Shown one piece after another: positions 2,706 to 18,569 of a DNA stretch of 64,000 bases. Under the pieces are notes generated by a model. That model did not search any database and was not told where the DNA came from. It worked only from the letters and a program-made list of their open reading frames with translations. How positions within the stretch are numbered: the first letter of the stretch is position 1; each line of letters starts with the position of its first letter. Source of the stretch: Candidatus Hydrogenedentes bacterium UBA6118 (GTDB taxonomy: Bacteria; Hydrogenedentota; Hydrogenedentia; Hydrogenedentales; SLHB01); NCBI GenBank assembly GCA_002422525.1, contig DIWA01000026.1, forward strand, positions 264,843 to 328,842, in the 5' to 3' direction. The position numbers and the translations under genes were made by a program.

Positions 2706-3791
2706 GTGGGGTGTATTCTACGCTGGAAGCCGCAAGGACGCGGCGCCGAGACCGAGGATCGCGGAACCGTCGCAGTGGTGCATATCGGAAATCGTTCTAT
2801 CAGCCCGTCGCGTGCCGCGATCCGCTGGACGAGAGGCCTCGCGTGCTGCGCCCTTCTCTGTCTGGCCGCGGGTTGCCCGGTCGAGCCCCTGGACAGGCTG
2901 ACCCTGCCGGGGCCGTACACGGCCGTACTCGAGCTCGTCCACGTCGACGACGGCTGGCGCTATCCGCTCGACCTCAGCGTGATCTACCCGGATGCCGATC
3001 CTCCCGAGGGCGGCTGGCCCGTGATCCTCTTCTCTACCGGCTGGAACCAGGCCCGCGCCTCCTACGACGGCATGGCGTCGCAACTGGCCGAACACGGGTT
3101 CGTCGTCGTGATCCGGTATTTCCCCAGTCTCGGCATCTGGGACCTCGGGTTCGACCTCTTCGACCTGCATCTCGAGCAGTGCGACGCGGTCCTCGCCTGG
3201 TGCGCCGAGCAGAACGCGCTGCCCGGATCGCTCCTGTACGGCCGATGCGACATGACCCGCGTCGGGGCCACGGGCCATTCGATGGGCGGACACGTCTCGA
3301 TCGTCCTCGCCAAACGGGATCCGCGCGTTCAAGCCGTCGTATCCCTCGACGCGCTGGTCGACCGCCCCGGCCTCTACGCCGTGGGCGACCTGTCGGAGCT
3401 GCGCGCGCCGACGCTGTACATCGGCGCCGAGGAAGGCGGGCTCTGCTCAACGTTCACGCTGTCCATGGACGACCCCGTCTGGTTGTACGACTACACGCCG
3501 GCGCCCCGCCAGGAAATCCTGATCACTGGCGCGGATCACCTGGATTTCATCCAGCACCGCACCGGCGAACCGTTGATCGACACGCAACTGTGCAGCGTCG
3601 GCTCCGCGGACGGCTATCTTGTTCGAGACATCGCATCTCGGTATATGATCGGATGGTTCACCTATTTCCTGAAGCAGCGCCCGGAGTACCGAACCTATTT
3701 CGACGGCGCTTGCTCGCAGGAGGACGAACAGAGCGGCGCGGTCGCCATACGGCGGGCGCTCAACGAAACCGACTTGATTGGGGAACCATGA
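2706..3791 (+). CDS. alpha/beta hydrolase lipoprotein (chlorophyllase/dienelactone-hydrolase-like), paralog 1
   Basis: GATGHSMGG nucleophile elbow; lipobox LCLAAGC. The real start may be GTG at ~2775/2778, giving MVHIGNRSISPSRAAIRWTRGLACCALLCLAAGC. It is ~45% identical to the next gene. Its stop overlaps the next start (ATGA). Confidence 0.6.
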   Translation: MGCILRWKPQGRGAETEDRGTVAVVHIGNRSISPSRAAIRWTRGLACCALLCLAAGCPVEPLDRLTLPGPYTAVLELVHVDDGWRYPLDLSVIYPDADPPEGGWPVILFSTGWNQARASYDGMASQLAEHGFVVVIRYFPSLGIWDLGFDLFDLHLEQCDAVLAWCAEQNALPGSLLYGRCDMTRVGATGHSMGGHVSIVLAKRDPRVQAVVSLDALVDRPGLYAVGDLSELRAPTLYIGAEEGGLCSTFTLSMDDPVWLYDYTPAPRQEILITGADHLDFIQHRTGEPLIDTQLCSVGSADGYLVRDIASRYMIGWFTYFLKQRPEYRTYFDGACSQEDEQSGAVAIRRALNETDLIGEP

Positions 3792-4741
3792 CCACGCATC
3801 GACTTCGCCCCGCCGTCCTGTCTGTTCTAGTCGCTCTCGCTTCGGCGTTCGCGCTCTCCGGTTGCTTCCAGCCATCCTCGCTGGGCTTTCCAGGTCCATA
3901 CGAAGCCAGCGCTTACCACGAGACCTACGGCGAGGAAGCGCTCCCGCTCACCGTCTTCTATCCGGACACCAACCCGCCGCGGCGCAACCTGCCGACGATC
4001 ATCTTCACGCCGGGGTTCATCCAGCCGCGCGCGTCGTACGAAAGCTACGGGTGGCAACTGGCGCAATGGGGGTTCGTCGTGGTGATCCGCGCCTACCCCA
4101 GCCTCGGCTTCGGCGGCGTCGGCGACGCGCTCATCGATGACCACGTGATCGAGTGCGGCCGAATCATCGACTGGCTGGTCGAGGAGAACCGCCGCGAGGA
4201 CTCGCGCCTGTACGGCATGATCGACGAGACGCGCTTCGGCGTGGCCGGCCATAGCGTCGGCGCGTCCGTCTCCATCGCAACCGCCGTCACCGACCCCCGC
4301 ATCGACGCGATGGTCGCGCTCGACGTGGCGTACGACGGCGCCGACCTCGACGTGCTGGGCGCGTTGCCCGACACGCAGGCCGCCATGATGTACATTCGCG
4401 GCGACGCAGGCGGCCTCTGCGGACGGTCGCCGTTCGCCACCGTGCCCCTGATCGACTATTCCCCGCCGCCGTCCATCGAGGTCACGATCCGCGGCGCCGA
4501 CCACATGGACTTCCTCGACGGCCTGATCGGCCTTTATGACTTCGGCTACGAAGTCGTCTCGCTTTGCTCCGACGGCCCGGCCGACGAGGAGTGGGTGCGC
4601 GCCATGGCGACGAAGTACATGGTGGCGTGGTTCAACGTGTACTTGAAAGGGCAGGACGAATTCAGGGACTATTACGAGGGCGCTCGGGCGGACGAAGACG
4701 TTGCGGCGGATGCCGTCGATTTCGTCCGGGTTCTCGACTGA
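3788..4741 (+). CDS. alpha/beta hydrolase lipoprotein (chlorophyllase/dienelactone-hydrolase-like), paralog 2
   Basis: Signal peptide MTTHRLRPAVLSVLVALASAFALSGC; GVAGHSVGA GxSxG motif. It occupies the 3' half of the 676-aa track ORF; the 5' half of that ORF is Arg-rich nonsense. Confidence 0.75.
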   Translation: MTTHRLRPAVLSVLVALASAFALSGCFQPSSLGFPGPYEASAYHETYGEEALPLTVFYPDTNPPRRNLPTIIFTPGFIQPRASYESYGWQLAQWGFVVVIRAYPSLGFGGVGDALIDDHVIECGRIIDWLVEENRREDSRLYGMIDETRFGVAGHSVGASVSIATAVTDPRIDAMVALDVAYDGADLDVLGALPDTQAAMMYIRGDAGGLCGRSPFATVPLIDYSPPPSIEVTIRGADHMDFLDGLIGLYDFGYEVVSLCSDGPADEEWVRAMATKYMVAWFNVYLKGQDEFRDYYEGARADEDVAADAVDFVRVLD

Positions 4742-8334: not shown

Positions 8335-8681
8335 CTACTCGCGCCCCGCGGCGCGTTCGGCGTCCTCCGCATACCGCTCGTACCAGGGCTTGCGCTCCGC
8401 CGCCTCCTCCGCGAGAGGGCTGTCGGGATACTCCGCCAGCAGCTCGCCCAGCACCCCCGCGGCGTCGTCGTGGCGCTGCGCAAAGCTGTAGGCCCGCGCC
8501 AGGTCGAGCATCACCTCGTCGCGCAACGCGAAGTCCGGCGCGTTGAGGTAGAGGTCCTCGAGTTCTCCCAGCGACGACTCGGTAAGACCGCCGACCGTGC
8601 AACGCTTGTGGCGCCCATAGAAGGCGTAGGCCGTGTCGGGGAACTCCGTCAGCAGTCGGCTCAGCGCGCCGCCCCGAGTCG
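8335..8681 (-). pseudogene. 3' (C-terminal) fragment of a type-1 secreted-array paralog, split by IS3 insertion
   Basis: Its DNA is ~90% identical to the 3' end of the gene at 14106-15080. It encodes ...LNAPDFALRDEVMLDLARAY...YPDSPLAEEAAERKPWYERYAEDAERAAGRE*. Homology ends exactly at the IS boundary. Confidence 0.7.
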
Positions 8682-8863
8682 TGCGCCTACCCCCAATCTT
8701 CGACCACGGATCGGCGATTTTAGGGTGGAACCTGCCGCCCTGTACGCCATGTCGTCGAGGCCCGTGAGCCGCGTGTCGGTGATGCCGTCGCGGAGTGGAG
8801 CCCGACCCCGAAGGGGCGGCCCGCAGGGCCGAGGGCGGAGCGCAGCGACGGCATCATGCGGTC

Positions 8864-9727
8864 TCATTTCCACCCCGCTCCTTGATGGAATACCTCAGCA
8901 GGGGTTCTCTTGTCCAGCGCGCTGTGTCTCCTTTCATAGTTGTAATAGTTGAACCATGCATCAAGCCCCCGGTGCAACTCATGTCCGTCGGCGTAGGACT
9001 TGGGATAGATCTCCTCATACTTCACCGACCACCACAGGCGCTCGATAAACACGTTGTCCAGAGCCCGTCCGCGACCGTCCATGCTGATCGCGATGCCTTT
9101 GTCCAGCAGCACGCGCGTGAAAGCCTGCGAAGTGAACTGCGAGCCCTGGTCCGTGTTGAAGATCTCGGGCGTGCCCCGGCTCAGCGCCCGCTCCAGGGCG
9201 ACCACGCAGAACAGGCCCTCAAGCGTGTTCGAGAGCTCCCATGCCAGCACGAAGCGACTGCGCCACTCCATGACCGCCGTCAGGTACATGAACCCATGAC
9301 GCATCGGAACGTAGGTGATGTCCGTGCTCCAGACCTGGTTCACCCGATCGATCCGCAGATCACGCAGCAAATAGGGGTAGATCACGTGTCCGGGCGCCGG
9401 CTTGCTCGTATGCGGCCCCGGCGTGATCGCCTGGAGCCCCATCCGCTGCATCAGCCGACTTACCCTCTTGCGGTTCACCGCGTGGCCCTGCTCCGCGAGC
9501 CAGTCCGTCATCCGCGGAGACCCGAACTCCGGATGGCGCATGTACTGCTCGTCGATGAGCCGCATCAGCACAAGGTTCTCTTCAGACTCCGGGGCGGGCA
9601 CGTAGTAGAAACTCGACCGAGGAACGCCTGCCAACCTGCATTGCCGCCGAACCGAGAGCCCGGCGCTGGAATCCACCCAGCCCCGGCGCGTTGAAAGCGG
9701 CAGGCTCATAGCTTTTTTTCCAGCCAC
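8864..9727 (-). CDS. IS3-family transposase OrfB (DDE/rve integrase domain)
   Basis: 287 aa with an rve-like core (...WSTDITYVPMRHGFMYLTAVMEW...FNTDQGSQFTS...ERLWWSVKYEEIY). Confidence 0.85.
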   Translation of the reverse strand: MAGKKAMSLPLSTRRGWVDSSAGLSVRRQCRLAGVPRSSFYYVPAPESEENLVLMRLIDEQYMRHPEFGSPRMTDWLAEQGHAVNRKRVSRLMQRMGLQAITPGPHTSKPAPGHVIYPYLLRDLRIDRVNQVWSTDITYVPMRHGFMYLTAVMEWRSRFVLAWELSNTLEGLFCVVALERALSRGTPEIFNTDQGSQFTSQAFTRVLLDKGIAISMDGRGRALDNVFIERLWWSVKYEEIYPKSYADGHELHRGLDAWFNYYNYERRHSALDKRTPAEVFHQGAGWK

Positions 9728-9990
9728 CGGATATCCATCTTCAACCGGCCGATCTCCTCGTAGAGCGGAGCCGTCAACTCCTCCTCGCTCTTGCCGCGCG
9801 CATCCTTGCCCGACGAGAACAACTCGGGAGCCTTCGTCACAAGCTGCTTCTTCCAGGTCGAGATCTGGTTGGGATGCACCTTGTACTCCGCCGCCAGCGC
9901 CGCCAGGGTCTTCACGCCCTTGACCGCCTCAAGCGCAACCTGAGCCTTGAACTTCTCCGTGAATGTCCGTCGTCGTCTTCCCACGTCCAT
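9706..9990 (-). CDS. IS3-family transposase OrfA (HTH); a -1 frameshift into OrfB is expected
   Basis: 94 aa with a leucine-zipper-like tail. The 22-nt overlap with orfB contains AAAAAAG. Confidence 0.8.
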   Translation of the reverse strand: MDVGRRRRTFTEKFKAQVALEAVKGVKTLAALAAEYKVHPNQISTWKKQLVTKAPELFSSGKDARGKSEEELTAPLYEEIGRLKMDIRWLEKKL

Positions 9991-10062
9991 GCGTCCTTTC
10001 CTACCAGCTCAAGGACGCAAATTCCACCTAAGCCCCTGGTCCGAAAATCGGGGGCAACCGCA

Positions 10063-10678
10063 TCGCGAACGAGTTGAGCTCGAACCCATTCGTCTTCAGC
10101 CCTTCCGTCCACAATGCCAGCGCCTCGCTCTCGCGACCTTCGGGCGCGCGCACCGTGATCTCCAGCCAGTTCGTCAGGACGCTCGGGCGCTTGCCGGCGG
10201 GCGCCTCCTGCCCGTCCGCCGGAGCCACCTGCACCTCCACCCGAAACCTGTGCACCCCTGGACGGTCCAGCACAAATGCGCTGGTCCCGCCGTACGCCGT
10301 CAGGAGGTCGCGTACCGTGTACGCCCCGCCCGGCGCCAGCTCGATGCGGTTGGCGCGGGAGTAAGATCCAGAGGACGCGCGGACGTAGCGCGCGTGCTCC
10401 TCGCTCCCCGGTCGCTGTTGGTACACCGTCGTGGAGCCGTCGCCAATCTCCCAGGGCGCGTTCACCCGCAGCGGATCCTGCGTGACGTTCGTCAGCGTCA
10501 GCTCCAACACCAGCGGTTCGCAGCACACATACGTCTGCTTCGGCGACCCGATGGTGTAGGCCACGCTTCCGGAAGCCGCGCCCGCCTCGCCGAACGCGGC
10601 CCCGCCCGCCAGCAACACGAGCCCCAGTGCAGCCGCGATGAACCACCCGCCGCCGTTTCTGCGTCTCTCTGCGTCCAT
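10063..10678 (-). pseudogene. 5' (N-terminal) fragment of the same type-1 paralog disrupted by IS3
   Basis: Signal peptide MDAERRRNGGGWFIAAALGLVLLAGGAAFG plus the SPKQTYVCCEPLVLELTLTNV domain, ~85% identical to the paralog at 14106-15080. The track ORF reads through into the IS to 10028. Confidence 0.7.
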
Positions 10679-10753: not shown

Positions 10754-11812
10754 TCACGGAACCGGCGGGTCTTCCTCGCCGCGGAGCAGGCGTTCGACGT
10801 ACTCCGTGTGGCGGCTGTCGGGGAAGCGCTCGCGCATCGCGTCGCAGATCTCCTGCGCCTCCGCCTCCATGTGCGCGCTCAGGTAGGCCTGCGTCAACTG
10901 CACCATCGCGCTGCTCAACAGCGGGAAGTCCGCCGCGTCCGCATCCCGCACGAACGCCTCGAACATCTCGACCCGCGACTGCTGCGCCTGCGCGATCCGC
11001 TGGCCCATCTCCGGGATCGGCGCTCGAGACGCTTCCAGAACGCTCCGGTGCGCTTCGCCGGCAACCCAGATCATCCGTTGATAGAGCCCGAACACCGTGT
11101 CTCCGAACTCCGTCGCCAGTCGCTCCCGCGCCTTCCGCGCCCTCTCCCGAACCGCAGGATCCCGGCTCCGGCCGCCGCGCAATACATCGCCGAACAGCGC
11201 ACTGGCGTCGCGATCCCGGCCTTGGGCCGCGACGACCTTGACCTCCAGCACGTTCGACCGAACCAACCTGCCGCAGTGCGCATCCGCCGTGTTCTCGGGG
11301 TCGGTCACGCAAGGCAGGTACGCGCACATGACCTCGTACACGCCCGTGCGAGTGAACGGGATTCCTGCCCCGGGACCCTGCGACCGGCCCACGTACTCCA
11401 GCAGCTTGCCGCCCTTCAGGGACGCGCCGGGCTCCACCAGCGCGATCTTCTCAGAGAAGTCATCGAAGAACTCCAACGGTCTCACGTCGTAGCCGTCGCC
11501 GTCCGGCTCGGTGATATGCACGTCCACGTTAGGTTCCAGGATCCATACGCTCTCCTCACCGGCATACGTGATCCGCCAGTCCAGGGCGAGCGGCTCGTTC
11601 GGCAGAAGGGTTGTTTTCGGCGAGGATACCGTCAGCGTGAACGGCAGATCCGGCGCCGCTTCGTCGTCGCCCATGCCGCTCCCGGTGTGCGCAAAGGGCG
11701 CGTCGCGCTCCACCGCATCACTAGCGAGGGACGAAACGGCCAGCACGGCGCAGAGCACCGTGCCGAACAGTCTGCGGCGACTGATGTTCCTGTCGCATCG
11801 CACCAGCATCAT
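10754..11812 (-). CDS. secreted paralog, type 2 (SPKTT beta-sandwich + FPDS helical tail family)
   Basis: Probable start at MMLVRCDRNISRRRLFGTVLCAVLAVSSLA (signal peptide); the track ORF starts with GTG at 11953. C-terminus ...EAFVRDADAADFPLLSSAM...RERFPDSRHTEYVERLLRGEEDPPVP. Paralogous to 16191-17243 and 17315-18376. Confidence 0.65.
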   Translation of the reverse strand: MMLVRCDRNISRRRLFGTVLCAVLAVSSLASDAVERDAPFAHTGSGMGDDEAAPDLPFTLTVSSPKTTLLPNEPLALDWRITYAGEESVWILEPNVDVHITEPDGDGYDVRPLEFFDDFSEKIALVEPGASLKGGKLLEYVGRSQGPGAGIPFTRTGVYEVMCAYLPCVTDPENTADAHCGRLVRSNVLEVKVVAAQGRDRDASALFGDVLRGGRSRDPAVRERARKARERLATEFGDTVFGLYQRMIWVAGEAHRSVLEASRAPIPEMGQRIAQAQQSRVEMFEAFVRDADAADFPLLSSAMVQLTQAYLSAHMEAEAQEICDAMRERFPDSRHTEYVERLLRGEEDPPVP

Positions 11813-11865: not shown

Positions 11866-13800
11866 CTAGTACGTGAAGTAGAATGCATTGCCTCGGATAT
11901 GGGCCTTGCATAGGTCGCAGAACGTTCCGGCTACGCCACTGCGCATCAGGCACACGTCTGCGGGATCTGGATGGTCTGCAAGGCCAAAGAAGTGGCCGAC
12001 CTCGTGCGCTGCGACGCGATCCGTCGTGAGCGCAAGGTCCTCGGAGATGCTCTCCACAAAGACAGCAGCGACAGGTGCTTCATCGTGGTGCAATGATGCG
12101 CCTCCCAAGACTCGCTCCTCGTCACATCCTGGGAAGCCCCCTTCAGGGTTGGGATCCCCGTCCCGCGCGTAACATGGGTCATAGCACACAACAACCTGCC
12201 CCGCCCAGTATCTGGCATCTGCCGGACTTCCGCAGTACTGCCTCAGGAACTCCGGCATGGCGTAGTTGTCGTCGCCACGGTAGACGTAGTCATAGTGACT
12301 GCTAGGGTCCCATGGGGCATACGCATGCACAGGCATATTCCGTCTGAACGGCACATCCGACGTGTCTTCCCCGGTATCGAACCTGGCCTCAATGTACGCC
12401 TCCTGAAGCGAGGCGACGATGGTGTCCGTCGGCGCGGGCGGAAGGGCGCCCCCCGGATCCGTGTCCTCCGTGTCTATCCGGTACGGGTCGCCCGACGACG
12501 CATTGGCGGTGATGTCAGGCGGCGTGCCGTGGAGCGTGAAGGCCGTGTCTGCCGAGTTCTGCCAAACGACATAGCGCCCTGGATCGAAGTCGGACCTGTT
12601 CGGATCGACAACCGCTCCGATGAGCTGATCGCAGCGGTAGGGCGTGACAAGCCACTCCGAGTGCGTCGGCCCCCAGTCCGCCGTGTCGTCCTCCAGGTAG
12701 CCCGAGCCCGTGTGGTGACTCGACAGAGCGGTGCTGTTCCCGGTAACGACGCCGAAAACCTCGCTGGGCGAAGGCGCCCCCATCGCGTCGCGTTCTATGT
12801 GCAGCGATCGCCACACGGTCAGCATCTCGGTCATGGCGCCGACGGGCGGCGTGAGCCCGTAGTCGGCCGAACCCTGCGAACCCAGCCCCGTCGAGTCGTT
12901 GATGCAAGCCGCGGTCACGCGGTAGTTGTCGCCCGGATTGAGGCTCACTACAAGCACTGCCTCTGCCACCCCGTTCGCGTCGGTGCTGGCGGTCACTGTT
13001 GTGCTGGCAGGTTCGCCCGCCCAGCCGCCAAGGCCGCGGTTGTCCGGACCGGTGACCCCCCCATTGGGATCGACCGGGGCGGTGGTCGACGACGGGTCGT
13101 CGACGTCCCAGACGCGAAAGTAGACCGTGATCCCGGCGATCGGCGGTTCGACTGTCGCCTTCACGCTCACGCGGTCCCTCCGACTCGGGTAGGCGTCGTT
13201 GTAGGTCAGTTTGTCTGGAAAGATGCGCTTGCTGCCGTTGTTGTTGGGACAGTCGTCGAGGTCCCGGTTGGTCGCATGGTGTTTCTGCCACACGACCTCC
13301 GTCACCGCGGCGAGCGCCAGTTGAACGCCGATCTGCCCCGAGGGATCGTCGGCGACAAGCCCCGGATCGTCGATGGTGCAGTGGGCCGCGTAGAGCCCCG
13401 GATCGAGATCCGCGGGCAGGGTCCACTTGCGCACCCAGTACCGATCCGTCGCGGCTGTCGTTCCGCCGTCCGTCGCCCACCCGGTGAAGGACACATAGTC
13501 GCCGTCCACCACGGGCACGGTCAGCATATAGTCGGTATCACTCATCGCGCCATACAGCCACAGCGTCTGCTGGAAAGCCCTCAGCATGAGCCGATGGACA
13601 CCGCCCACGCTCGGCACTTCATCCCCCGCGCCGTTCTGCACCTGGAGCTCGGTGTCCGCGATGTACGGAAACGGGAAGTACATCTGCGCATCGGTGACGC
13701 GCGGCGTCAGCCACAAGAGCGATGTCGCGAACACGCCCGTCGCGATCGCGGCCCACCGCGCCGCACGCCGTGCTCCTCCATTCAGCCTGGTTCTCTGCAT
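11866..13800 (-). CDS. secreted 644-aa protein with a snapalysin-like zinc-metalloprotease motif HEVGHFFGLADH near the C-terminus
   Basis: Signal peptide MQRTRLNGGARRAARWAAIATGVFATSLLWLTP. Long beta-rich body. HExxHxxGxxD(H) matches the M7/snapalysin consensus HETGHVLGLPDHY. It is embedded in the paralog array and preceded by a conserved promoter/leader. Confidence 0.7.
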   Translation of the reverse strand: MQRTRLNGGARRAARWAAIATGVFATSLLWLTPRVTDAQMYFPFPYIADTELQVQNGAGDEVPSVGGVHRLMLRAFQQTLWLYGAMSDTDYMLTVPVVDGDYVSFTGWATDGGTTAATDRYWVRKWTLPADLDPGLYAAHCTIDDPGLVADDPSGQIGVQLALAAVTEVVWQKHHATNRDLDDCPNNNGSKRIFPDKLTYNDAYPSRRDRVSVKATVEPPIAGITVYFRVWDVDDPSSTTAPVDPNGGVTGPDNRGLGGWAGEPASTTVTASTDANGVAEAVLVVSLNPGDNYRVTAACINDSTGLGSQGSADYGLTPPVGAMTEMLTVWRSLHIERDAMGAPSPSEVFGVVTGNSTALSSHHTGSGYLEDDTADWGPTHSEWLVTPYRCDQLIGAVVDPNRSDFDPGRYVVWQNSADTAFTLHGTPPDITANASSGDPYRIDTEDTDPGGALPPAPTDTIVASLQEAYIEARFDTGEDTSDVPFRRNMPVHAYAPWDPSSHYDYVYRGDDNYAMPEFLRQYCGSPADARYWAGQVVVCYDPCYARDGDPNPEGGFPGCDEERVLGGASLHHDEAPVAAVFVESISEDLALTTDRVAAHEVGHFFGLADHPDPADVCLMRSGVAGTFCDLCKAHIRGNAFYFTY

Positions 13801-13894
13801 GTCTCACGTCCTCCGTGGGAACCGCCGTTACAGAACATGCATGCCGTCTCCCGCCTCAGCGGGACGGCGAATGGGCTGAACTCCGGTCCGGCAA

Positions 13895-14011
13895 TCACCT
13901 CCCTCCAATCGGGAGGAACGCCGGGAAGAGACACGACACAGACGGGAAGGCCGAGCGACGGATGCGTCGCCCGAAGGGGGGATAGGCTGCTGTCAGTCCA
14001 GAAGGTCTCAT
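13895..14011 (-). pseudogene. relic 5' end of a type-2 paralog (38-codon ORF MRPSGLTAAYPPFGRRIRRS...), now the 5' leader of the metalloprotease gene
   Basis: Nearly identical to the first codons and 5' UTR of the gene at 17315-18376, then diverges and stops. Confidence 0.4.
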
Positions 14012-14057
14012 CGCACGGCGTCCCAGCCTCGCGCTGTATACCTCGGCCTATGCATCG

Positions 14058-14086
14058 ACTCTACACCGTATTGGATGGGCTGTCAA
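14058..14086 (-). promoter_or_regulatory. sigma70-type promoter TTGACA-17 bp-TAGAGT with an upstream A-tract (copy 2)
   Basis: On the minus strand: aaaaaaggtcTTGACAgcccatccaatacggtgTAGAGTcg. It is near-identical to the promoter at 18423-18451 and is an extreme AT-rich outlier in a ~70% GC region. Confidence 0.5.
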
Positions 14087-14105
14087 GACCTTTTTTCGGC
14101 GCCTC

Positions 14106-15080
14106 CTACTCGCCCTCCGCGGCCTCGCGCGCGGCGGCGCGTTCGGCATCCTCCGCATACCGCTCGTACCAGGGCTTGCGCTCCGCCGCCTCCTCCGCGA
14201 GAGGGCTGTCCGGATACTCCGCCAGCAACTCGCCCAACACCGCCGCGCCATCGCTGTAGCGTTGCGCGGATCTGTACGCCCGCGCCAGGTCGAGCATCAC
14301 CTCGTCGCGCAACGCGAAGTCCGGCGCGTTGAGGTAGAGGTCCTCGAGTTCTCCCAGCGACGACTCGGTAAGACCGCCGACCGTGCAACGTTTGTGGCGC
14401 CCATGGAAGGCGTAGACCGTATCGGGGAACTCGGTCAACAGCCGGCTCAGGGCGCCGCCCCGAGTCGCGAACGAGTTAAGGTCGAACCCATTCGTCTTCA
14501 GTCCTTCCGTCCACAATGCCAGCGCCTCGCTCTCGCGACCTTCGGGCGCGCGCACCGTGACCTCCAGCCAGTTCGTCAGAACGCTCGGGCGCTTGCCGGA
14601 GGGCGCGTCCTGCCCGTCCGCCGGCGCAAGCTGCGCCTCCACCCGAAACCTGTGCACGCCTGGACGGTCCAGCACAAACGCGCTGGTCCCGCCGTACGCC
14701 GTCAGGAGGTCGCGGACCGTGTACGCCCCGCCCGGCGCCAGCTCGACAATGTTGGGGGAGAGGTAATCGCTGAAGATCGCGGGGACGTAGCGTGCCTGTT
14801 CCTCGCTCCCCGGTCGCTGCTGGTACACCGTCGTGCGGCCGTCGCCAATGTCCCAGGGCGCGTTCACCTGCACCGGATCCTGCGTGACGTTCGTCAGCGT
14901 CAGCTCCAACACCAGCGGTTCGCAGCACACATACGTCTGCTTCGGCGACCTGATGGTGTAGGCCACGCTTCCGGAAGCCGCGCCCGCGTCGCCGAACGCG
15001 GCCCCGCCCGCCAGCAACACAAGCCCCGCCGCGGCCGCGATGAGCCACCCGCCGCCGTTCCTGTGTCTCTTCGTATTCAT
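14106..15080 (-). CDS. secreted paralog, type 1 (SPKQT beta-sandwich + YPDS helical tail), intact copy
   Basis: Signal peptide MNTKRHRNGGGWLIAAAAGLVLLAGGAAFG; GGGAGG RBS; tail LAEYPDSPLAEEAAERKPWYERYAEDAERAAAREAAEGE. Confidence 0.7.
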   Translation of the reverse strand: MNTKRHRNGGGWLIAAAAGLVLLAGGAAFGDAGAASGSVAYTIRSPKQTYVCCEPLVLELTLTNVTQDPVQVNAPWDIGDGRTTVYQQRPGSEEQARYVPAIFSDYLSPNIVELAPGGAYTVRDLLTAYGGTSAFVLDRPGVHRFRVEAQLAPADGQDAPSGKRPSVLTNWLEVTVRAPEGRESEALALWTEGLKTNGFDLNSFATRGGALSRLLTEFPDTVYAFHGRHKRCTVGGLTESSLGELEDLYLNAPDFALRDEVMLDLARAYRSAQRYSDGAAVLGELLAEYPDSPLAEEAAERKPWYERYAEDAERAAAREAAEGE

Positions 15081-15116
15081 GTCTACCTCCCTGCCCCCAG
15101 TTCGTGCCTTCCCCCG

Positions 15117-16115
15117 TCACCGCGCCTCGCGCGCGGCGGCGCGTTCGGCGTCCTCCGCATACCGCTCGTACCAGGGCTTGCGCTCCGCCGCCTCCTCCGC
15201 GAGAGGGCTGTCCGGATACTCGGCCAGCAACTCGCCCAGCACCGCCGCGCCATCGCTGTAGCGTTGCGCGGATCTGTACGCCCGCGCCAGGTCGAGCATC
15301 ACCTCGTCGCGCAACGCGAAGTCCGGCGCGTTGAGGTAGAGGTCCTCGAGGATCGCCTGCCGGCACGCCTCCTGCGAGCGCCCCTGCAACGTCGACTCGG
15401 GCAACGCGCCCCGCTTGGCCAGCGCGGACCGCGCGTGCCGCCCGTAGACCGTGTCCGGGTGATCCGCGACCAGCGCCGCGACCGCCTCATCGGACTGATC
15501 CAGCGATCCCAGGTCGAACGCAGCCCGCTGGAGCGCCGCCAGCCAGAGCGCCAAGGCCTCCGCGTCGCGGTCCGCCGGGGCGCCGACCGTCACCTGGACC
15601 TCGTTGCTCACGACGGCCGGCCAGCCCGACGCCGGCTTGCCGCCATCGCCGGAGTCCACCGTGAACCGCGCCCGGAACCGGTACGCGCCCGGCAACGCGA
15701 GAACGAACGGGTTGGCGCCTGCTCGGTCATCGGTCTCCATCGTCGCAAGGATCCCCCGCAGGCGGATCGCGCCGTCCGCGGCAAGCGGCGCCCGGAGCGG
15801 GACCATGAGGCTGAGGGTCGACGGCGGCTGGTACACGCGCCATTCCGCCTCGCCCGGACCGCACACCTCGATCATGAGGGGCGCCTGCCCGACCTGCGGC
15901 GGCAACGTCACCGTGAGCGCCCCCTCCGCGTCGGTCTCAAGCGCAACATCCAGCACGATGGGCTCACCGACGAGACACTGCGCGTCGCCGCTATGCCGGA
16001 GCGTCACGCGGATCGCGTCCGACGCGCACCACGCGGCCCCGCCCGCCAGCAACACAAGCCCCACTGCGGCCGCGATGAACCCGCCGCCGCCATTCCTGCG
16101 TCTCTTCGTGTTCAT
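15117..16115 (-). CDS. secreted paralog, type 1 variant (divergent middle, same signal peptide and tail)
   Basis: Probable start MNTKRRRNGGGGFIAAAVGLVLLAGGAAWCAS with the conserved GGGAGGCAGACATG leader. The C-terminal ~75 aa are near-identical to 14106-15080. Confidence 0.65.
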   Translation of the reverse strand: MNTKRRRNGGGGFIAAAVGLVLLAGGAAWCASDAIRVTLRHSGDAQCLVGEPIVLDVALETDAEGALTVTLPPQVGQAPLMIEVCGPGEAEWRVYQPPSTLSLMVPLRAPLAADGAIRLRGILATMETDDRAGANPFVLALPGAYRFRARFTVDSGDGGKPASGWPAVVSNEVQVTVGAPADRDAEALALWLAALQRAAFDLGSLDQSDEAVAALVADHPDTVYGRHARSALAKRGALPESTLQGRSQEACRQAILEDLYLNAPDFALRDEVMLDLARAYRSAQRYSDGAAVLGELLAEYPDSPLAEEAAERKPWYERYAEDAERAAAREAR

Positions 16116-16190
16116 GTCTGCCTCCCTGCCCCCAGTTCGTGCCTTCCCCCCGTCACGGCGTCTCCCGCGCATCTCCCTGATCCTCCGTCC

Positions 16191-17243
16191 TCACGGAACC
16201 GGCGGGTCCTCCTCGCCGCGAAGCAGGCGCTCGACATGCTCCGTGTGGCGGCTGTCCGGGAAGCGCTTGCGCATGGTCTCGCAGATCTCCTGCGCCTCCG
16301 CCTCCATGTGCGCGCTCAGGTAGGCCTGCGCCAACTGCTGCATCGCGCTGTCCAGCAGCGGGAAATCCGCCGCCTCCGCATCCCGCACGAACGCCTCGAA
16401 CATCTCGACCCGCGACTGCTGCGCCTGCGCCCGCGTATGCTCCACGTCCCGCGTGTCCGCATACCCGGCCGCGTGCACGCCCCAGCGCCCGGCCACGGCG
16501 ATGCGCGGCAGTCTCTCGTACAGCCCGAACACCGTGTCGCCGAACTCCGTCGCCAGTCGCTCCGCGGCCGCCGCGGCCTCCTCACGGGCCGCTTCCTTGG
16601 GGCTATAGGTCCCGAGCAGCACCGTCCGGTACAGCGCGCCCGCCTCGGCGTCGCGTCCCTTGGCCGGGTTCACTGTCACTGTGAGTACATTCGACCGGAC
16701 CAGCTTGCCCCGCCGCGACCCCGTGGCGCGATCCGGATCGGTCACCAAAGGGCCGAAGGCGCAGCGCACCTCGTACACGCCCGGTCGAGAGAACGGCACG
16801 ACCACAGGGGGGACGCCCCGCCGCGCAGCCGTCTGCAACAGCATGCCGCTCGCATGGACGTACCCCGGCTCGACCTGAACAGGAGGAGGCTGCGAGGTCA
16901 TGAAATGCGTCGTTTCCCGCAAGTTGTAGCCGGTTCCGCCCGGCTCGGTGATGTGCACCATCACCTCCGGCTTCCTGATCCAGATGGACTCGGAACCTGT
17001 GTAGGAAAGCCGCCAGTCCAGAACCAGCGGCTCGTTCGGCAGAAGCGTCGTCTTCGGCGACGATATCGTCAGCGTGAACGGGAGATCCGGCGCATTCTCC
17101 TCGTCCTTCGCGTACCTCAGCCACTGCTCGAAAGGGGCGTCCAGGTCGAGCCCGGCCGCCGCCGCAACCGGACAGACCAAGGCCGAGAGCACGACGATGC
17201 TCGCGACCAACCCTGCGTATCTGACTCTGCTCTCATCCGACAT
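16191..17243 (-). CDS. secreted paralog, type 2
   Basis: Signal peptide MSDESRVRYAGLVASIVVLSALVCPVAAAAG; SSPKTTLLPNEPLVLDW domain. The 3' ~230 nt are near-identical to the 3' end of 17315-18376. Confidence 0.7.
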   Translation of the reverse strand: MSDESRVRYAGLVASIVVLSALVCPVAAAAGLDLDAPFEQWLRYAKDEENAPDLPFTLTISSPKTTLLPNEPLVLDWRLSYTGSESIWIRKPEVMVHITEPGGTGYNLRETTHFMTSQPPPVQVEPGYVHASGMLLQTAARRGVPPVVVPFSRPGVYEVRCAFGPLVTDPDRATGSRRGKLVRSNVLTVTVNPAKGRDAEAGALYRTVLLGTYSPKEAAREEAAAAAERLATEFGDTVFGLYERLPRIAVAGRWGVHAAGYADTRDVEHTRAQAQQSRVEMFEAFVRDAEAADFPLLDSAMQQLAQAYLSAHMEAEAQEICETMRKRFPDSRHTEHVERLLRGEEDPPVP

Positions 17244-17314
17244 ACCGCATCCCTCCCGATCGAACAGACCCCATCGCGCCGCCGGAGTTCGCCCCTACTC
17301 GCCCTCCTCCGTGC

Positions 17315-18376
17315 TCACGGAACCGGCGGGTCCTCCTCGCCGCGGAGCAGGCGCTCGACGTACTCCGTGTGGCGGCTGTCCGGGAAGCGCTTACGCATGG
17401 TCTCGCAGATCTCCCGCGCCTCCGCCTCCATGTGCGCGCTCAGGTAGGCCTGCGCCAACTGCTGCATCGCGCTGTCCAGCAGCGGGAAATCCGCCGCCTC
17501 CGCATCCCGCACGAACGCCTCGAACATCTCCACCCGCGACTGCTGGGCTCTGCGCAGATCGCCCTGTCCGCCCCGGCTTGCCTCCCAGACGCCGTGCTCC
17601 GACGCCGCTGCAACCCGCGACTGCCGTTGGTAGAGCCCAAACACCGTGTCGCCGAACTCCGCAACCAACCGCTCCGCGGCGGACACTGACTCGTCGCGAC
17701 TGACCTGGCCGTCTCCATAGACACCGAACATGACCGTTCGGTACAACGCGCCCGCCTCGGCGTCGCGTCCCTTAGCGGGCTTCACGGTCACCGTCAGTAC
17801 GTTCGAGTGCACCGGCCTGCCGCCAACGGTCGCTTGGCGCGTCTCCGGGTCAGCCAACGCAGGCGCGAGCCTGCACTGAACCTGGTAGACGCCGGGCCGC
17901 GCGAAGGGTATGACCATCCGCGTCGCCGAGGGTTTGGAGACGATCTGCAGCAGCTTGCCGCCGGTCCGTACGCAGCCCGGTTCCATCGCCTCGACCACGG
18001 CGCGGTCGAAGTGCACATGCATCCACCGCTTCACGTCGTAGCCGTCGCCATCCGGCTCCGTGATGTGCACCTTCACGTCCGGCGCAACGACCCAGATCGT
18101 CTCATTCCCGGCATACGTGATCCGCCAGTCCAGGGCGAGCGGCTCGTTCGGCAGAAGGGTCGTCTTCGGCGACGAAATCGTCAGCGTCAACGACAGGTCC
18201 GGCGCCGCTTCGTCGTCGCCCATGCCGCTCCCGGTGTGCGCAGACGGCGCGTCGCGCTCCGCCGCGGTCGCAACCGGACAGAGCAATGCGAAGAGGAGAA
18301 CGGCGAGATGCACAGGCGAGCGACGGATGCGTCGCCCGGAGGGGGGATAGGCTGCTGTCATTCCTGAAGGTCTCAT
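17315..18376 (-). CDS. secreted paralog, type 2 (first gene of the array, directly after the conserved promoter)
   Basis: N-terminus MRPSGMTAAYPPSGRRIRRSPVHLAVLLFALLCPVATAA. Same domain organisation and the FPDSRHTEYVERLLRGEEDPPVP tail. Confidence 0.7.
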   Translation of the reverse strand: MRPSGMTAAYPPSGRRIRRSPVHLAVLLFALLCPVATAAERDAPSAHTGSGMGDDEAAPDLSLTLTISSPKTTLLPNEPLALDWRITYAGNETIWVVAPDVKVHITEPDGDGYDVKRWMHVHFDRAVVEAMEPGCVRTGGKLLQIVSKPSATRMVIPFARPGVYQVQCRLAPALADPETRQATVGGRPVHSNVLTVTVKPAKGRDAEAGALYRTVMFGVYGDGQVSRDESVSAAERLVAEFGDTVFGLYQRQSRVAAASEHGVWEASRGGQGDLRRAQQSRVEMFEAFVRDAEAADFPLLDSAMQQLAQAYLSAHMEAEAREICETMRKRFPDSRHTEYVERLLRGEEDPPVP

Positions 18377-18422
18377 CGCACGGCGTCCCTGCCTCGCGCT
18401 GGATACCTCGGCCTACGCGTCC

Positions 18423-18451
18423 ACTCTATGCCGTCTGCGCGCGGCTGTCAA
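18423..18451 (-). promoter_or_regulatory. sigma70-type promoter TTGACA-17 bp-TAGAGT with an upstream A-tract (copy 1), ~40-nt 5' UTR to ATG 18376
   Basis: On the minus strand: ggtaaaaaggtcTTGACAgccgcgcgcagacggcaTAGAGTggacg. It is duplicated at 14058-14086. Confidence 0.55.
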
Positions 18452-18569
18452 GACCTTTTTACCGGGCTCAGGCGCCCCGCAGACGGCAAAAGGCCCCGAC
18501 GCGGGGCGTCAGGGCCTCTGCAATGCGCCGCCGCTCCGTCGCGGAGGGCGGGATGTCTGCGTTCGCGGA

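Follow-up and report, generated by a model that had tools for sequence, protein, structure and literature searches.

A candidate family of exported metzincin-type proteases with a closely linked β-sandwich–TPR partner in an uncultured Hydrogenedentes bacterium

A catalytic motif close to the C-terminus is ordinary for small metzincins. In snapalysins (family M7; 1C7K, 4HX3) the C-terminal subdomain is a single helix, and the archaemetzincin tail is similarly short (PMC3890501, PMC3427221); about 10 residues separate the third zinc ligand from the Met-turn methionine of snapalysins (PMC3890501). Archaemetzincins (M54; 3ZVS, 4AXQ) are recognized by the fingerprint HEXXHXXGXXHCX4CXMX17CXXC, with a Cys4 structural zinc site below the catalytic site, at positions that are occupied by disulfides in other metzincins (PMC3427221). 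Minizincins (M94) are single domains of about 115 residues with HEXXHXXGXXD near the C-terminus and no Met-turn (PMC3890501). Here, we describe the protease gene P in a stretch of 64,000 nucleotides (the window, with position 1 as its first letter) from contig DIWA01000026.1 of Candidatus Hydrogenedentes bacterium UBA6118. By our estimate, with a probability of roughly 65%, its product is a zinc endopeptidase of the metzincin clan that has several domains and is exported, the gene being paired with a gene, N, for an exported partner consisting of a β-sandwich and a TPR domain.

Serralysin with Inh/AprI is an adjacent gene pair of a protease and its inhibitor, and BepA/YfgC is a periplasmic M48 metalloprotease with a fused TPR domain. 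In Tannerella forsythia, KLIKK peptidases and potempins form pairs in which the genes of the cognate inhibitors are adjacent (PMC9890683).

P was taken from the list of open reading frames (ORFs) of the window; public gene callers arrive at the identical 644-residue product on six metagenomic contigs (JGI, NCBI, Logan), of which one from JGI is 130 kb long and one from NCBI 348 kb. Its parts are as follows, where pLDDT is the predicted local distance difference test score of the structural models.

11866..13800, minus strand: protease gene P, 644 residues plus stop codon
13687..13800, minus strand: putative signal peptide (residues 1-38; basic n-region, hydrophobic core WAAIATGVFATSLLWL, TDA/Q), by crude hydropathy test
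13327..13686, minus strand: clade-specific N-terminal region (residues 39-158; pLDDT <50), aligning only with the closest homologues P0002-P0005
12826..13326, minus strand: immunoglobulin (Ig)-like β-sandwich (residues ~159-325; pLDDT 82-96), the most conserved part of the family
11869..12825, minus strand: metzincin-like catalytic domain (residues ~326-644), from predicted models and weak structural and profile matches
12436-12768, minus strand: variable insertion in the catalytic domain (residues ~345-455, ~110 residues; pLDDT 35-56), between the first strand and the backing helix
11971..12006, minus strand: zinc motif HEVGHFFGLADH (residues 599-610), from the ORF translation and family conservation
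11944..11946, minus strand: M619, putative Met-turn methionine, 10 residues beyond D609
11908..11952, or 11908-11973 including H610, minus strand: C617...C628-x-x-C631, possible structural metal site or disulfide, from the alignment to archaemetzincin 3zvs
11893..11895, minus strand: R636, near-invariant arginine in the C-terminal helix (at least 90% conserved), aligning with the terminal KIR of archaemetzincin

A first-pass annotation, made from the letters of the window, had pointed out in this protein a snapalysin-like motif, with Asp as its third zinc ligand, and a short C-terminal remainder. Both are present, and the motif is of the metzincin type. Residues 599-609 (HEVGHFFGLAD) match the extended metzincin motif HExxHxxGxx(H/D); by position in HEVGHFFGLADH, H599 and H603 would be zinc ligands, E600 the general base and D609 the third ligand, with G606 and H610 as further motif residues, and 34 residues follow (PDPADVCLMRSGVAGTFCDLCKAHIRGNAFYFTY). 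The first methionine of this tail had been named as a possible Met-turn, and M619 indeed sits at the expected position.

Relatives keep the motif. A search that made no reference to it collected 36 homologues, and these keep H599, E600 and H603 at 90% or more; an HExxH lies near the C-terminus in 166 of 178 family members; the other 12 comprise nine fragments that end at contig edges and three degenerate cases (HDVGH, HEMGA, HEVAR). Among the 166, a Met is located 7-35 residues past the second His in 145 (median distance 14), a hydrophobic-Arg pair (R636 in P) within the last 22 residues in 164, and a Gly three positions past the second His in 105. The canonical third-ligand position, six past the second His, is occupied by His 63 times and by Asp 27 times, and a His or Asp is found there or at one of the next three positions in 141; as His is the commoner residue across the family, the Asp of P is a feature of its clade. 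The tail past the 12-residue motif has a family median of 34 residues, equal to that of P, and a conserved module of ~450 residues (β-sandwich plus catalytic domain) reaches the C-terminus in almost all of the 150 members listed. Because this tail length and module end are shared, the C-terminal placement of the motif, which had been regarded as atypical, is a property of the family. To judge from this conservation, the motif of P is not a chance match.

In an exhaustive profile search, 3,439 cluster representatives passed E<=1e-3 and 1,565 the stricter E<=1e-30, and a further homologue search seeded with 145 diverse sequences brought no new proteins. In species-representative genomes we located 55 family loci, every one from uncultured metagenome-assembled genomes (MAGs), the hosts being Phycisphaerae, other Planctomycetota, Acidobacteriota, Verrucomicrobiota, other bacteria of the PVC group, Armatimonadota and a few others. 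Cluster look-up gave no family name or accession, no Pfam or NCBIfam model reached its cut-off on P, and no description of the family was found in the literature, within the limits of the resources searched. We rate the P family as a new, unnamed family of the metzincin clan, in which a β-sandwich and a catalytic domain form a fixed module and the partner gene is conserved.

For structure prediction, full-length P was modelled with a predicted template-modelling score (pTM) of 0.65, the core elements beyond the β-sandwich coming out with confidence as well. Because Foldseek searches with the full-length model were dominated by the Ig-like domain and uninformative on the catalytic part, residues 322-644 were modelled separately on the basis of an 88-sequence alignment (pTM 0.77). 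Both models agree on the order of elements (full-length numbering): the long strand 327-340 (LTVWRSLHIERDAM), which is among the most conserved stretches of the family, comes first and is followed by the insertion, then by helix 459-466, strands 470-474, 531-539, 567-570 and 577-581, the HExxH helix 593-605, a loop with D609 and M619, and the terminal helix 629-643. In both, the motif lies inside the predicted helix 593-605; with this and its conservation in relatives, neither of the two outcomes that had been named as contradicting the first-pass annotation occurred. This predicted order would be that of a metzincin catalytic domain, with helix 459-466 as the backing helix; the strands would map to β1-β5 (β1 being 327-340), going by the order of elements. 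Within the insertion, G408 is near-invariant, and residues 445-447, just ahead of the backing helix, form a DDD motif.

Comparison of the C-terminal model with the PDB using Foldseek yielded a top 50 of nearly all metzincin catalytic domains, matched weakly and none at E<=1e-3, including MMP-11 (E 0.06, probability 0.90), profragilysin-3, MMP-12/13, ADAM10, leishmanolysin and ulilysin. Snapalysin (4hx3) had the best structural coverage among the PDB matches, with a template-modelling score of 0.48 (normalised to snapalysin) and a root-mean-square deviation of 4.1 Å over ~125 of its 133 residues. A single-sequence search of the PDB with P found nothing; the family profile found metzincin-clan zincins only (E 0.003-0.3), and its alignments to ADAMTS-4 and fragilysin-like proteins reach ~50 residues upstream of the HExxH. 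Fourteen of 46 family members weakly matched Reprolysin_5 (best E 1.2e-6). A viral structure library gave weak matches only, several of the named ones being zinc metalloproteases, and was given no weight. Single-sequence matches of P to Pfam and NCBIfam models (M7, M10, reprolysin, snapalysin, archaemetzincin) were all below cut-off and limited to the motif region: P scored 15.3 against a threshold of 24 for the matrixins (M10, PF00413), 12.7 against 27 and 22.4 for the reprolysin/adamalysin models (M12B) PF13688 and PF13582, and 11.6 bits against 145 for archaemetzincin NF033823.

The local resemblance to snapalysin, which the first-pass annotation had emphasised, is real and weak. P scored 16 bits with Pfam Peptidase_M7 (PF02031; E 0.013, profile positions 77-113), where the cut-off is 25, and 18.6 bits with NCBIfam snapalysin NF033628, where it is 300; both matches span residues 592-629 only, and M7 was matched at all by only 2 of 46 family members. 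On sequence, P is outside family M7, as it fell short of every threshold tested. Like P, snapalysin has HExxHxxGxxD with Asp as the third ligand, a Met about 10 residues further on, and a C-terminal subdomain reduced to one helix (PMC3890501). It is, however, a single-domain Streptomyces enzyme of ~132 residues, whereas P has 644 residues, a conserved β-sandwich and the ~110-residue catalytic insertion, and the P family uses His more often than Asp. As such a one-helix subdomain is already known in snapalysin, and short tails are normal in snapalysin and archaemetzincin, the earlier notion of a minimal or novel zincin fold is not borne out; that of a catalytic domain completed by N-terminal elements applies only in the ordinary metzincin sense, the β-sheet and backing helix preceding the HExxH (residues ~326-598). 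The minizincin 3e11 was a weak profile match (E 0.014), and P differs from minizincins in having a Met-turn candidate, an extra helix and several domains.

The best match of the family profile in the PDB was archaemetzincin (3zvs, E 0.003), in an alignment that starts from β5, passes through HExxHxxGxxH and C-x-M, and ends with the IR of the chain-terminal F-C-x-x-C-x-x-x-I-R, where P reads ...VCLM...FCDLCKAHIR. P departs from the M54 fingerprint in having D-H for H-C, followed by x6-C-x-M-x8-C-x-x-C, so that 8 residues lie between Met and CxxC where archaemetzincin has 17; of the four Cys positions, three are cysteine in P and the fourth is His. Since H610, C617, C628 and C631 thus occupy positions equivalent to the archaemetzincin Cys4 site, these residues could plausibly bind a structural metal or form a disulfide. 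This His-Cys3 cluster is found only in the clade of P and a few scattered members; CxM and CxxC are both present in only 7 of 166, of which four (P0075, P0086, P0128, P0133) have four cysteines in an archaemetzincin-like arrangement; the complete HCx4CxM...CxxC occurs in a few members of the family. Archaemetzincins differ in being cytoplasmic proteins of ~160-190 residues with a Cys4 zinc finger, whereas P is predicted to be exported.

The β-sandwich contains the conserved motifs CPNNGxKRIFPDK, VYFRVWDVDDP, GPDNRG and QPGDNYR, and D232, D235, D253 and N292 are invariant in 145 sequences. Its Foldseek neighbours are intimin D0-D1, ester-bond adhesin domains and the Ca2+-binding Calx-β domain CBD1, and the Asp/Asn cluster suggests that it may bind Ca2+. 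As it always accompanies the catalytic domain, the β-sandwich probably belongs to the functional enzyme. P had also been described as secreted and beta-rich. The latter holds for residues ~160-350, where the β-sandwich is confidently predicted (pLDDT 82-96), and does not extend to residues 1-158, which were not confidently modelled; N-terminal regions are not uniform in the family, where Dicty_CTDC, Big_1 and PKD domains are among them. As to secretion, the N-terminus is signal-peptide-like by sequence reading and a crude hydropathy test (MQRTRLNGGARRAARW, then a hydrophobic stretch, then TDA/Q). A Tat signal was considered and rejected by reading, RRAARW being a poor fit to the twin-arginine consensus, as was a C-terminal sorting domain, since the chain ends in the last helix of the catalytic domain; the NCBIfam GlyGly-CTERM match is confined to the motif. 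Neither P nor N matched a defence-system model in PADLOC.

The linkage of P to its partner gene is the unexpected result. The neighbouring paralogs, which the first-pass annotation had proposed as candidate substrates, constitute, by gene order and sequence, a conserved and tightly linked partner family. Relatives of N were sought in the 55 loci with an iterated profile of the window paralogs. Linkage was assessed for the 51 protease genes whose C-terminus is intact and which have 900 bp or more of downstream sequence. An N gene follows directly downstream on the same strand in 32 of these, starting at -155 to +71 bp (median ~10 bp). All 43 N matches are on the strand of the protease, whereas the background ORFs are spread over both strands (706 plus, 832 minus), and all but two come immediately after a protease or another N gene. 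In several phyla the genes form P-N-P-N arrays (loci L005, L008, L011, L015, L016, L017, L019 and L033); the pair therefore duplicates as a unit. Loci L005 and L015 also hold extra short protease-like ORFs of ~200-230 residues that match the family profile, and in L005, a Phycisphaerae MAG, a second, very large metzincin-containing protein (13682-18529, minus strand; >2,034 residues, with Astacin, β-helix and FG-GAP Pfam matches) is encoded ~3 kb downstream of the protease homologue.

Several of the protease genes that lack N have another tightly coupled downstream gene, encoding a signal-peptide protein. The products of L042:1741-2514 and L044:6396-7016 are alike, as are those of L049:7564-8826 and L055:7473-8729, a hint that other partner families exist in Verrucomicrobiota and Alphaproteobacteria.

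N proteins consist of a signal peptide, a β-sandwich (EPxxLxVxLxN, LxPG, FxxPGxY) and a helical half. In the crude hydropathy test, signal-peptide-like N-termini were scored for 36 of 38 N proteins and 75 of 139 proteases, and for 5 of 139 control segments. With the profile of the N family, the helical half matched the TPR domain of CpoB/YbgF over ~105 residues (6g5s, E 1.1e-8; 2xev, E 1.5e-6) and, more weakly, BamD. The full-length equivalog TIGR02795 scored 16.5 bits against a cut-off of 90.1; N accordingly shares only the TPR domain and is not a CpoB orthologue.

Compared with the KLIKK–potempin pairs, a secreted peptidase gene here likewise adjoins the gene of a small exported partner, in a unit that recurs for several peptidases of one genome. 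Potempin genes, however, lie upstream of the peptidase genes and encode lipoproteins of 98-132 residues (PMC9890683), whereas N lies downstream and encodes 270-400 residues with a β-sandwich and TPR. The locus resembles BepA in combining an HExxH protease with a periplasmic TPR module related to repeats of the BamD/YbgF type. BepA, though, is a gluzincin-type M48 enzyme with its TPR in cis, whereas P is metzincin-like and the TPR resides on the separate protein N.

Six to seven N paralogs, intact or truncated, flank P on its own strand in the window, with pairwise identities of 26-62% and two subtypes. These genes and the promoter-like site upstream of P are the following.

17315-18223, minus strand: N paralog, 302 residues, upstream of P
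16191-17243, minus strand: N paralog, 350 residues, upstream of P
15117-16115, minus strand: N paralog, 332 residues, upstream of P
14106-15080, minus strand: N paralog, 324 residues, upstream of P
13945..14090, minus strand: promoter-like site (TTGACA-17-TAGAGT) with leader block, within the 305-bp gap that precedes P; second copy at 18310-18455
10754..11812, minus strand: partner gene N, 352 residues, 53 bp downstream of P; signal peptide, β-sandwich and YbgF/CpoB-type TPR
10028..10678, minus strand: N paralog truncated by IS3 (216-residue ORF), its C-terminal part at 8338-8679

In the split paralog, the N-terminal part (10058-10678, residues 1-207) is 85% identical to the 324-residue paralog, and the C-terminal part (8338-8679) matches residues 206-319 of that paralog at 92%; the IS3-family element inside it (within 8338-10678, minus strand) comprises orfA at 9706-9990 and orfB at 8864-9727. 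The blocks of ~150 nt at 13945-14090 and 18310-18455 are ~93% identical, with an identical promoter-like site (at ~14058-14086 and ~18423-18451) and ~110 nt of leader, one copy being upstream of P and the other upstream of the first N paralog, which suggests two co-regulated transcription units. A structured RNA element was considered for the leader and rejected, as there was no Rfam match and the sequence folds no better than shuffled sequence; the block was kept as a duplicated promoter and leader. Elsewhere in the window, two tandem genes at ~2775-4741 on the plus strand (L001:19060-21026) have Pfam matches to PETase, chlorophyllase and dienelactone-hydrolase-like α/β-hydrolases.

In the mechanism that we propose, P would consist, in order, of a signal peptide, the clade-specific N-terminal region, the Ig-like β-sandwich and a catalytic domain that fills the C-terminal ~320 residues, the catalytic β-sheet and backing helix lying upstream of the motif and being interrupted by the ~110-residue insertion. 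H599, H603 and D609 would hold the catalytic zinc, E600 would serve as the general base and polarise a water molecule, and M619 would provide the Met-turn below the metal. A single C-terminal helix, ending near R636, would close the domain and leave P with a minimal C-terminal subdomain like that of snapalysin and archaemetzincin, while H610, C617, C628 and C631 may hold a further metal with a structural role or be linked by a disulfide in the clade of P. The catalytic domain is probably complete and active, going by its conserved residues; P would act as a small metzincin set within a larger exported protein. N would be a latency factor, either inhibitor or chaperone, that binds its cognate protease in the periplasm. 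We favour this role on account of the tight coupling, the repeated 1:1 pairs and the precedents of the potempin–KLIKK and serralysin-inhibitor systems, and put it forward tentatively, with the odds somewhat against it. The wider proposal that P and the downstream N form an undescribed two-gene secreted-protease module, common to many uncultured Planctomycetota, Acidobacteriota and PVC-group bacteria, in which N is a new class of cognate metzincin regulator (latency factor, inhibitor or chaperone), P and N co-diversify in P-N-P-N arrays and a Ca2+-dependent β-sandwich is obligatory, is possible and, taken as a whole, doubtful.

Other explanations concern the activity and descent of P on the one hand and the role of N on the other. 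That P is an inactive metzincin-fold protein, namely a decoy, as had been suggested at first, a binding protein, or a regulator in the manner of the archaemetzincin-type CarG, is improbable. Archaemetzincins with intact motifs showed no detectable activity and CarG is non-proteolytic (PMC3427221), the third-ligand position varies in the P family, and the β-sandwich is conserved more strongly than the catalytic domain; yet both His and the catalytic Glu are at least 90% conserved in the unbiased homologue set, a His or Asp ligand, the Met and the terminal Arg are kept across the family, and the motif is degenerate in only 3 of 178 members, a pattern that indicates selection on catalysis in the remainder. 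The exported location is also ill-suited to a transcription-factor role. That P is a true snapalysin relative fused with N-terminal domains, or a zincin of minimal or novel fold without a normal N-terminal subdomain, has very little in its favour overall: the local motif HExGHxxGLxDH with Asp as the third ligand and Met ten residues on is that of snapalysin, no family is matched better in single-sequence searches than M7 and snapalysin, and the Foldseek alignment covers snapalysin almost fully, but the scores are far under the cut-offs (16 against 25 and 18.6 against 300 bits) and confined to residues 592-629. With the family profile, moreover, archaemetzincin, ADAMTS and fragilysin-like proteins score equally well or better, the Asp ligand is a clade feature while His is commoner family-wide (63 against 27), and the predicted upstream strands and backing helix amount to a full-size N-terminal subdomain.

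As for N, its proteins could be substrates or cargo, with P as the dedicated maturation or processing enzyme of the N array, a role to which the six to seven paralogs of two subtypes around a single P in the window, the P-N-N arrangements at other loci and the apparent export of both proteins would lend themselves. We consider it unlikely, as the main arrangement elsewhere is 1:1 and repeated as P-N-P-N, which suggests cognate pairing over one enzyme with many substrates, no conserved motif resembling a cleavage site is evident in the N family alignment, where only PGxY is near-invariant, and N proteins are folded two-domain proteins rather than precursor-like peptides. Alternatively, N might be an adaptor or substrate-recruiting subunit, its TPR tethering P to envelope machinery or presenting substrates like the TPR of BepA. 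The homology of the helical half to the periplasmic TPR proteins CpoB/YbgF and BamD fits this, and the tight translational coupling is compatible with a stoichiometric complex; the different partner families in some clades run contrary to a conserved envelope docking role, and we would not expect this explanation to hold.

Several points tell against P as an active exported metzincin with N as its cognate partner. No single structural or profile match is significant (best Foldseek E 0.06, best PDB profile E 0.003), the zinc-site geometry and strand assignment are putative, and residues 1-158, 359-433, 489-512 and 543-564 are weakly predicted. The third-ligand position is H/D in only 90 of 166 members, i.e. 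lies in a variable loop, and the archaemetzincins, the closest tail match, were without protease activity in vitro (PMC3427221). The N family is absent downstream of 19 of the 51 protease genes, and six to seven partners for one protease in the window fit a simple 1:1 inhibitor model poorly.

If P is the metzincin-type peptidase that we propose, several thousand sequence clusters that are unnamed, unannotated and not covered by any Pfam or NCBIfam model would become assignable as such peptidases, with β-sandwich, insertion-bearing catalytic domain and minimal C-terminal subdomain as their architecture, in bacteria of soil, sediment and wastewater that are abundant but uncultured. The archaemetzincin-like tail in an exported bacterial enzyme bears on the proposal that archaemetzincin stands close to the ancestral metzincin (PMC3890501). 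The conserved partner would offer a testable idea of how these bacteria restrain their secreted proteases, and, among the protein inhibitors or chaperones of metzincins, the clan that includes the MMPs and ADAMs, N could represent a new type.

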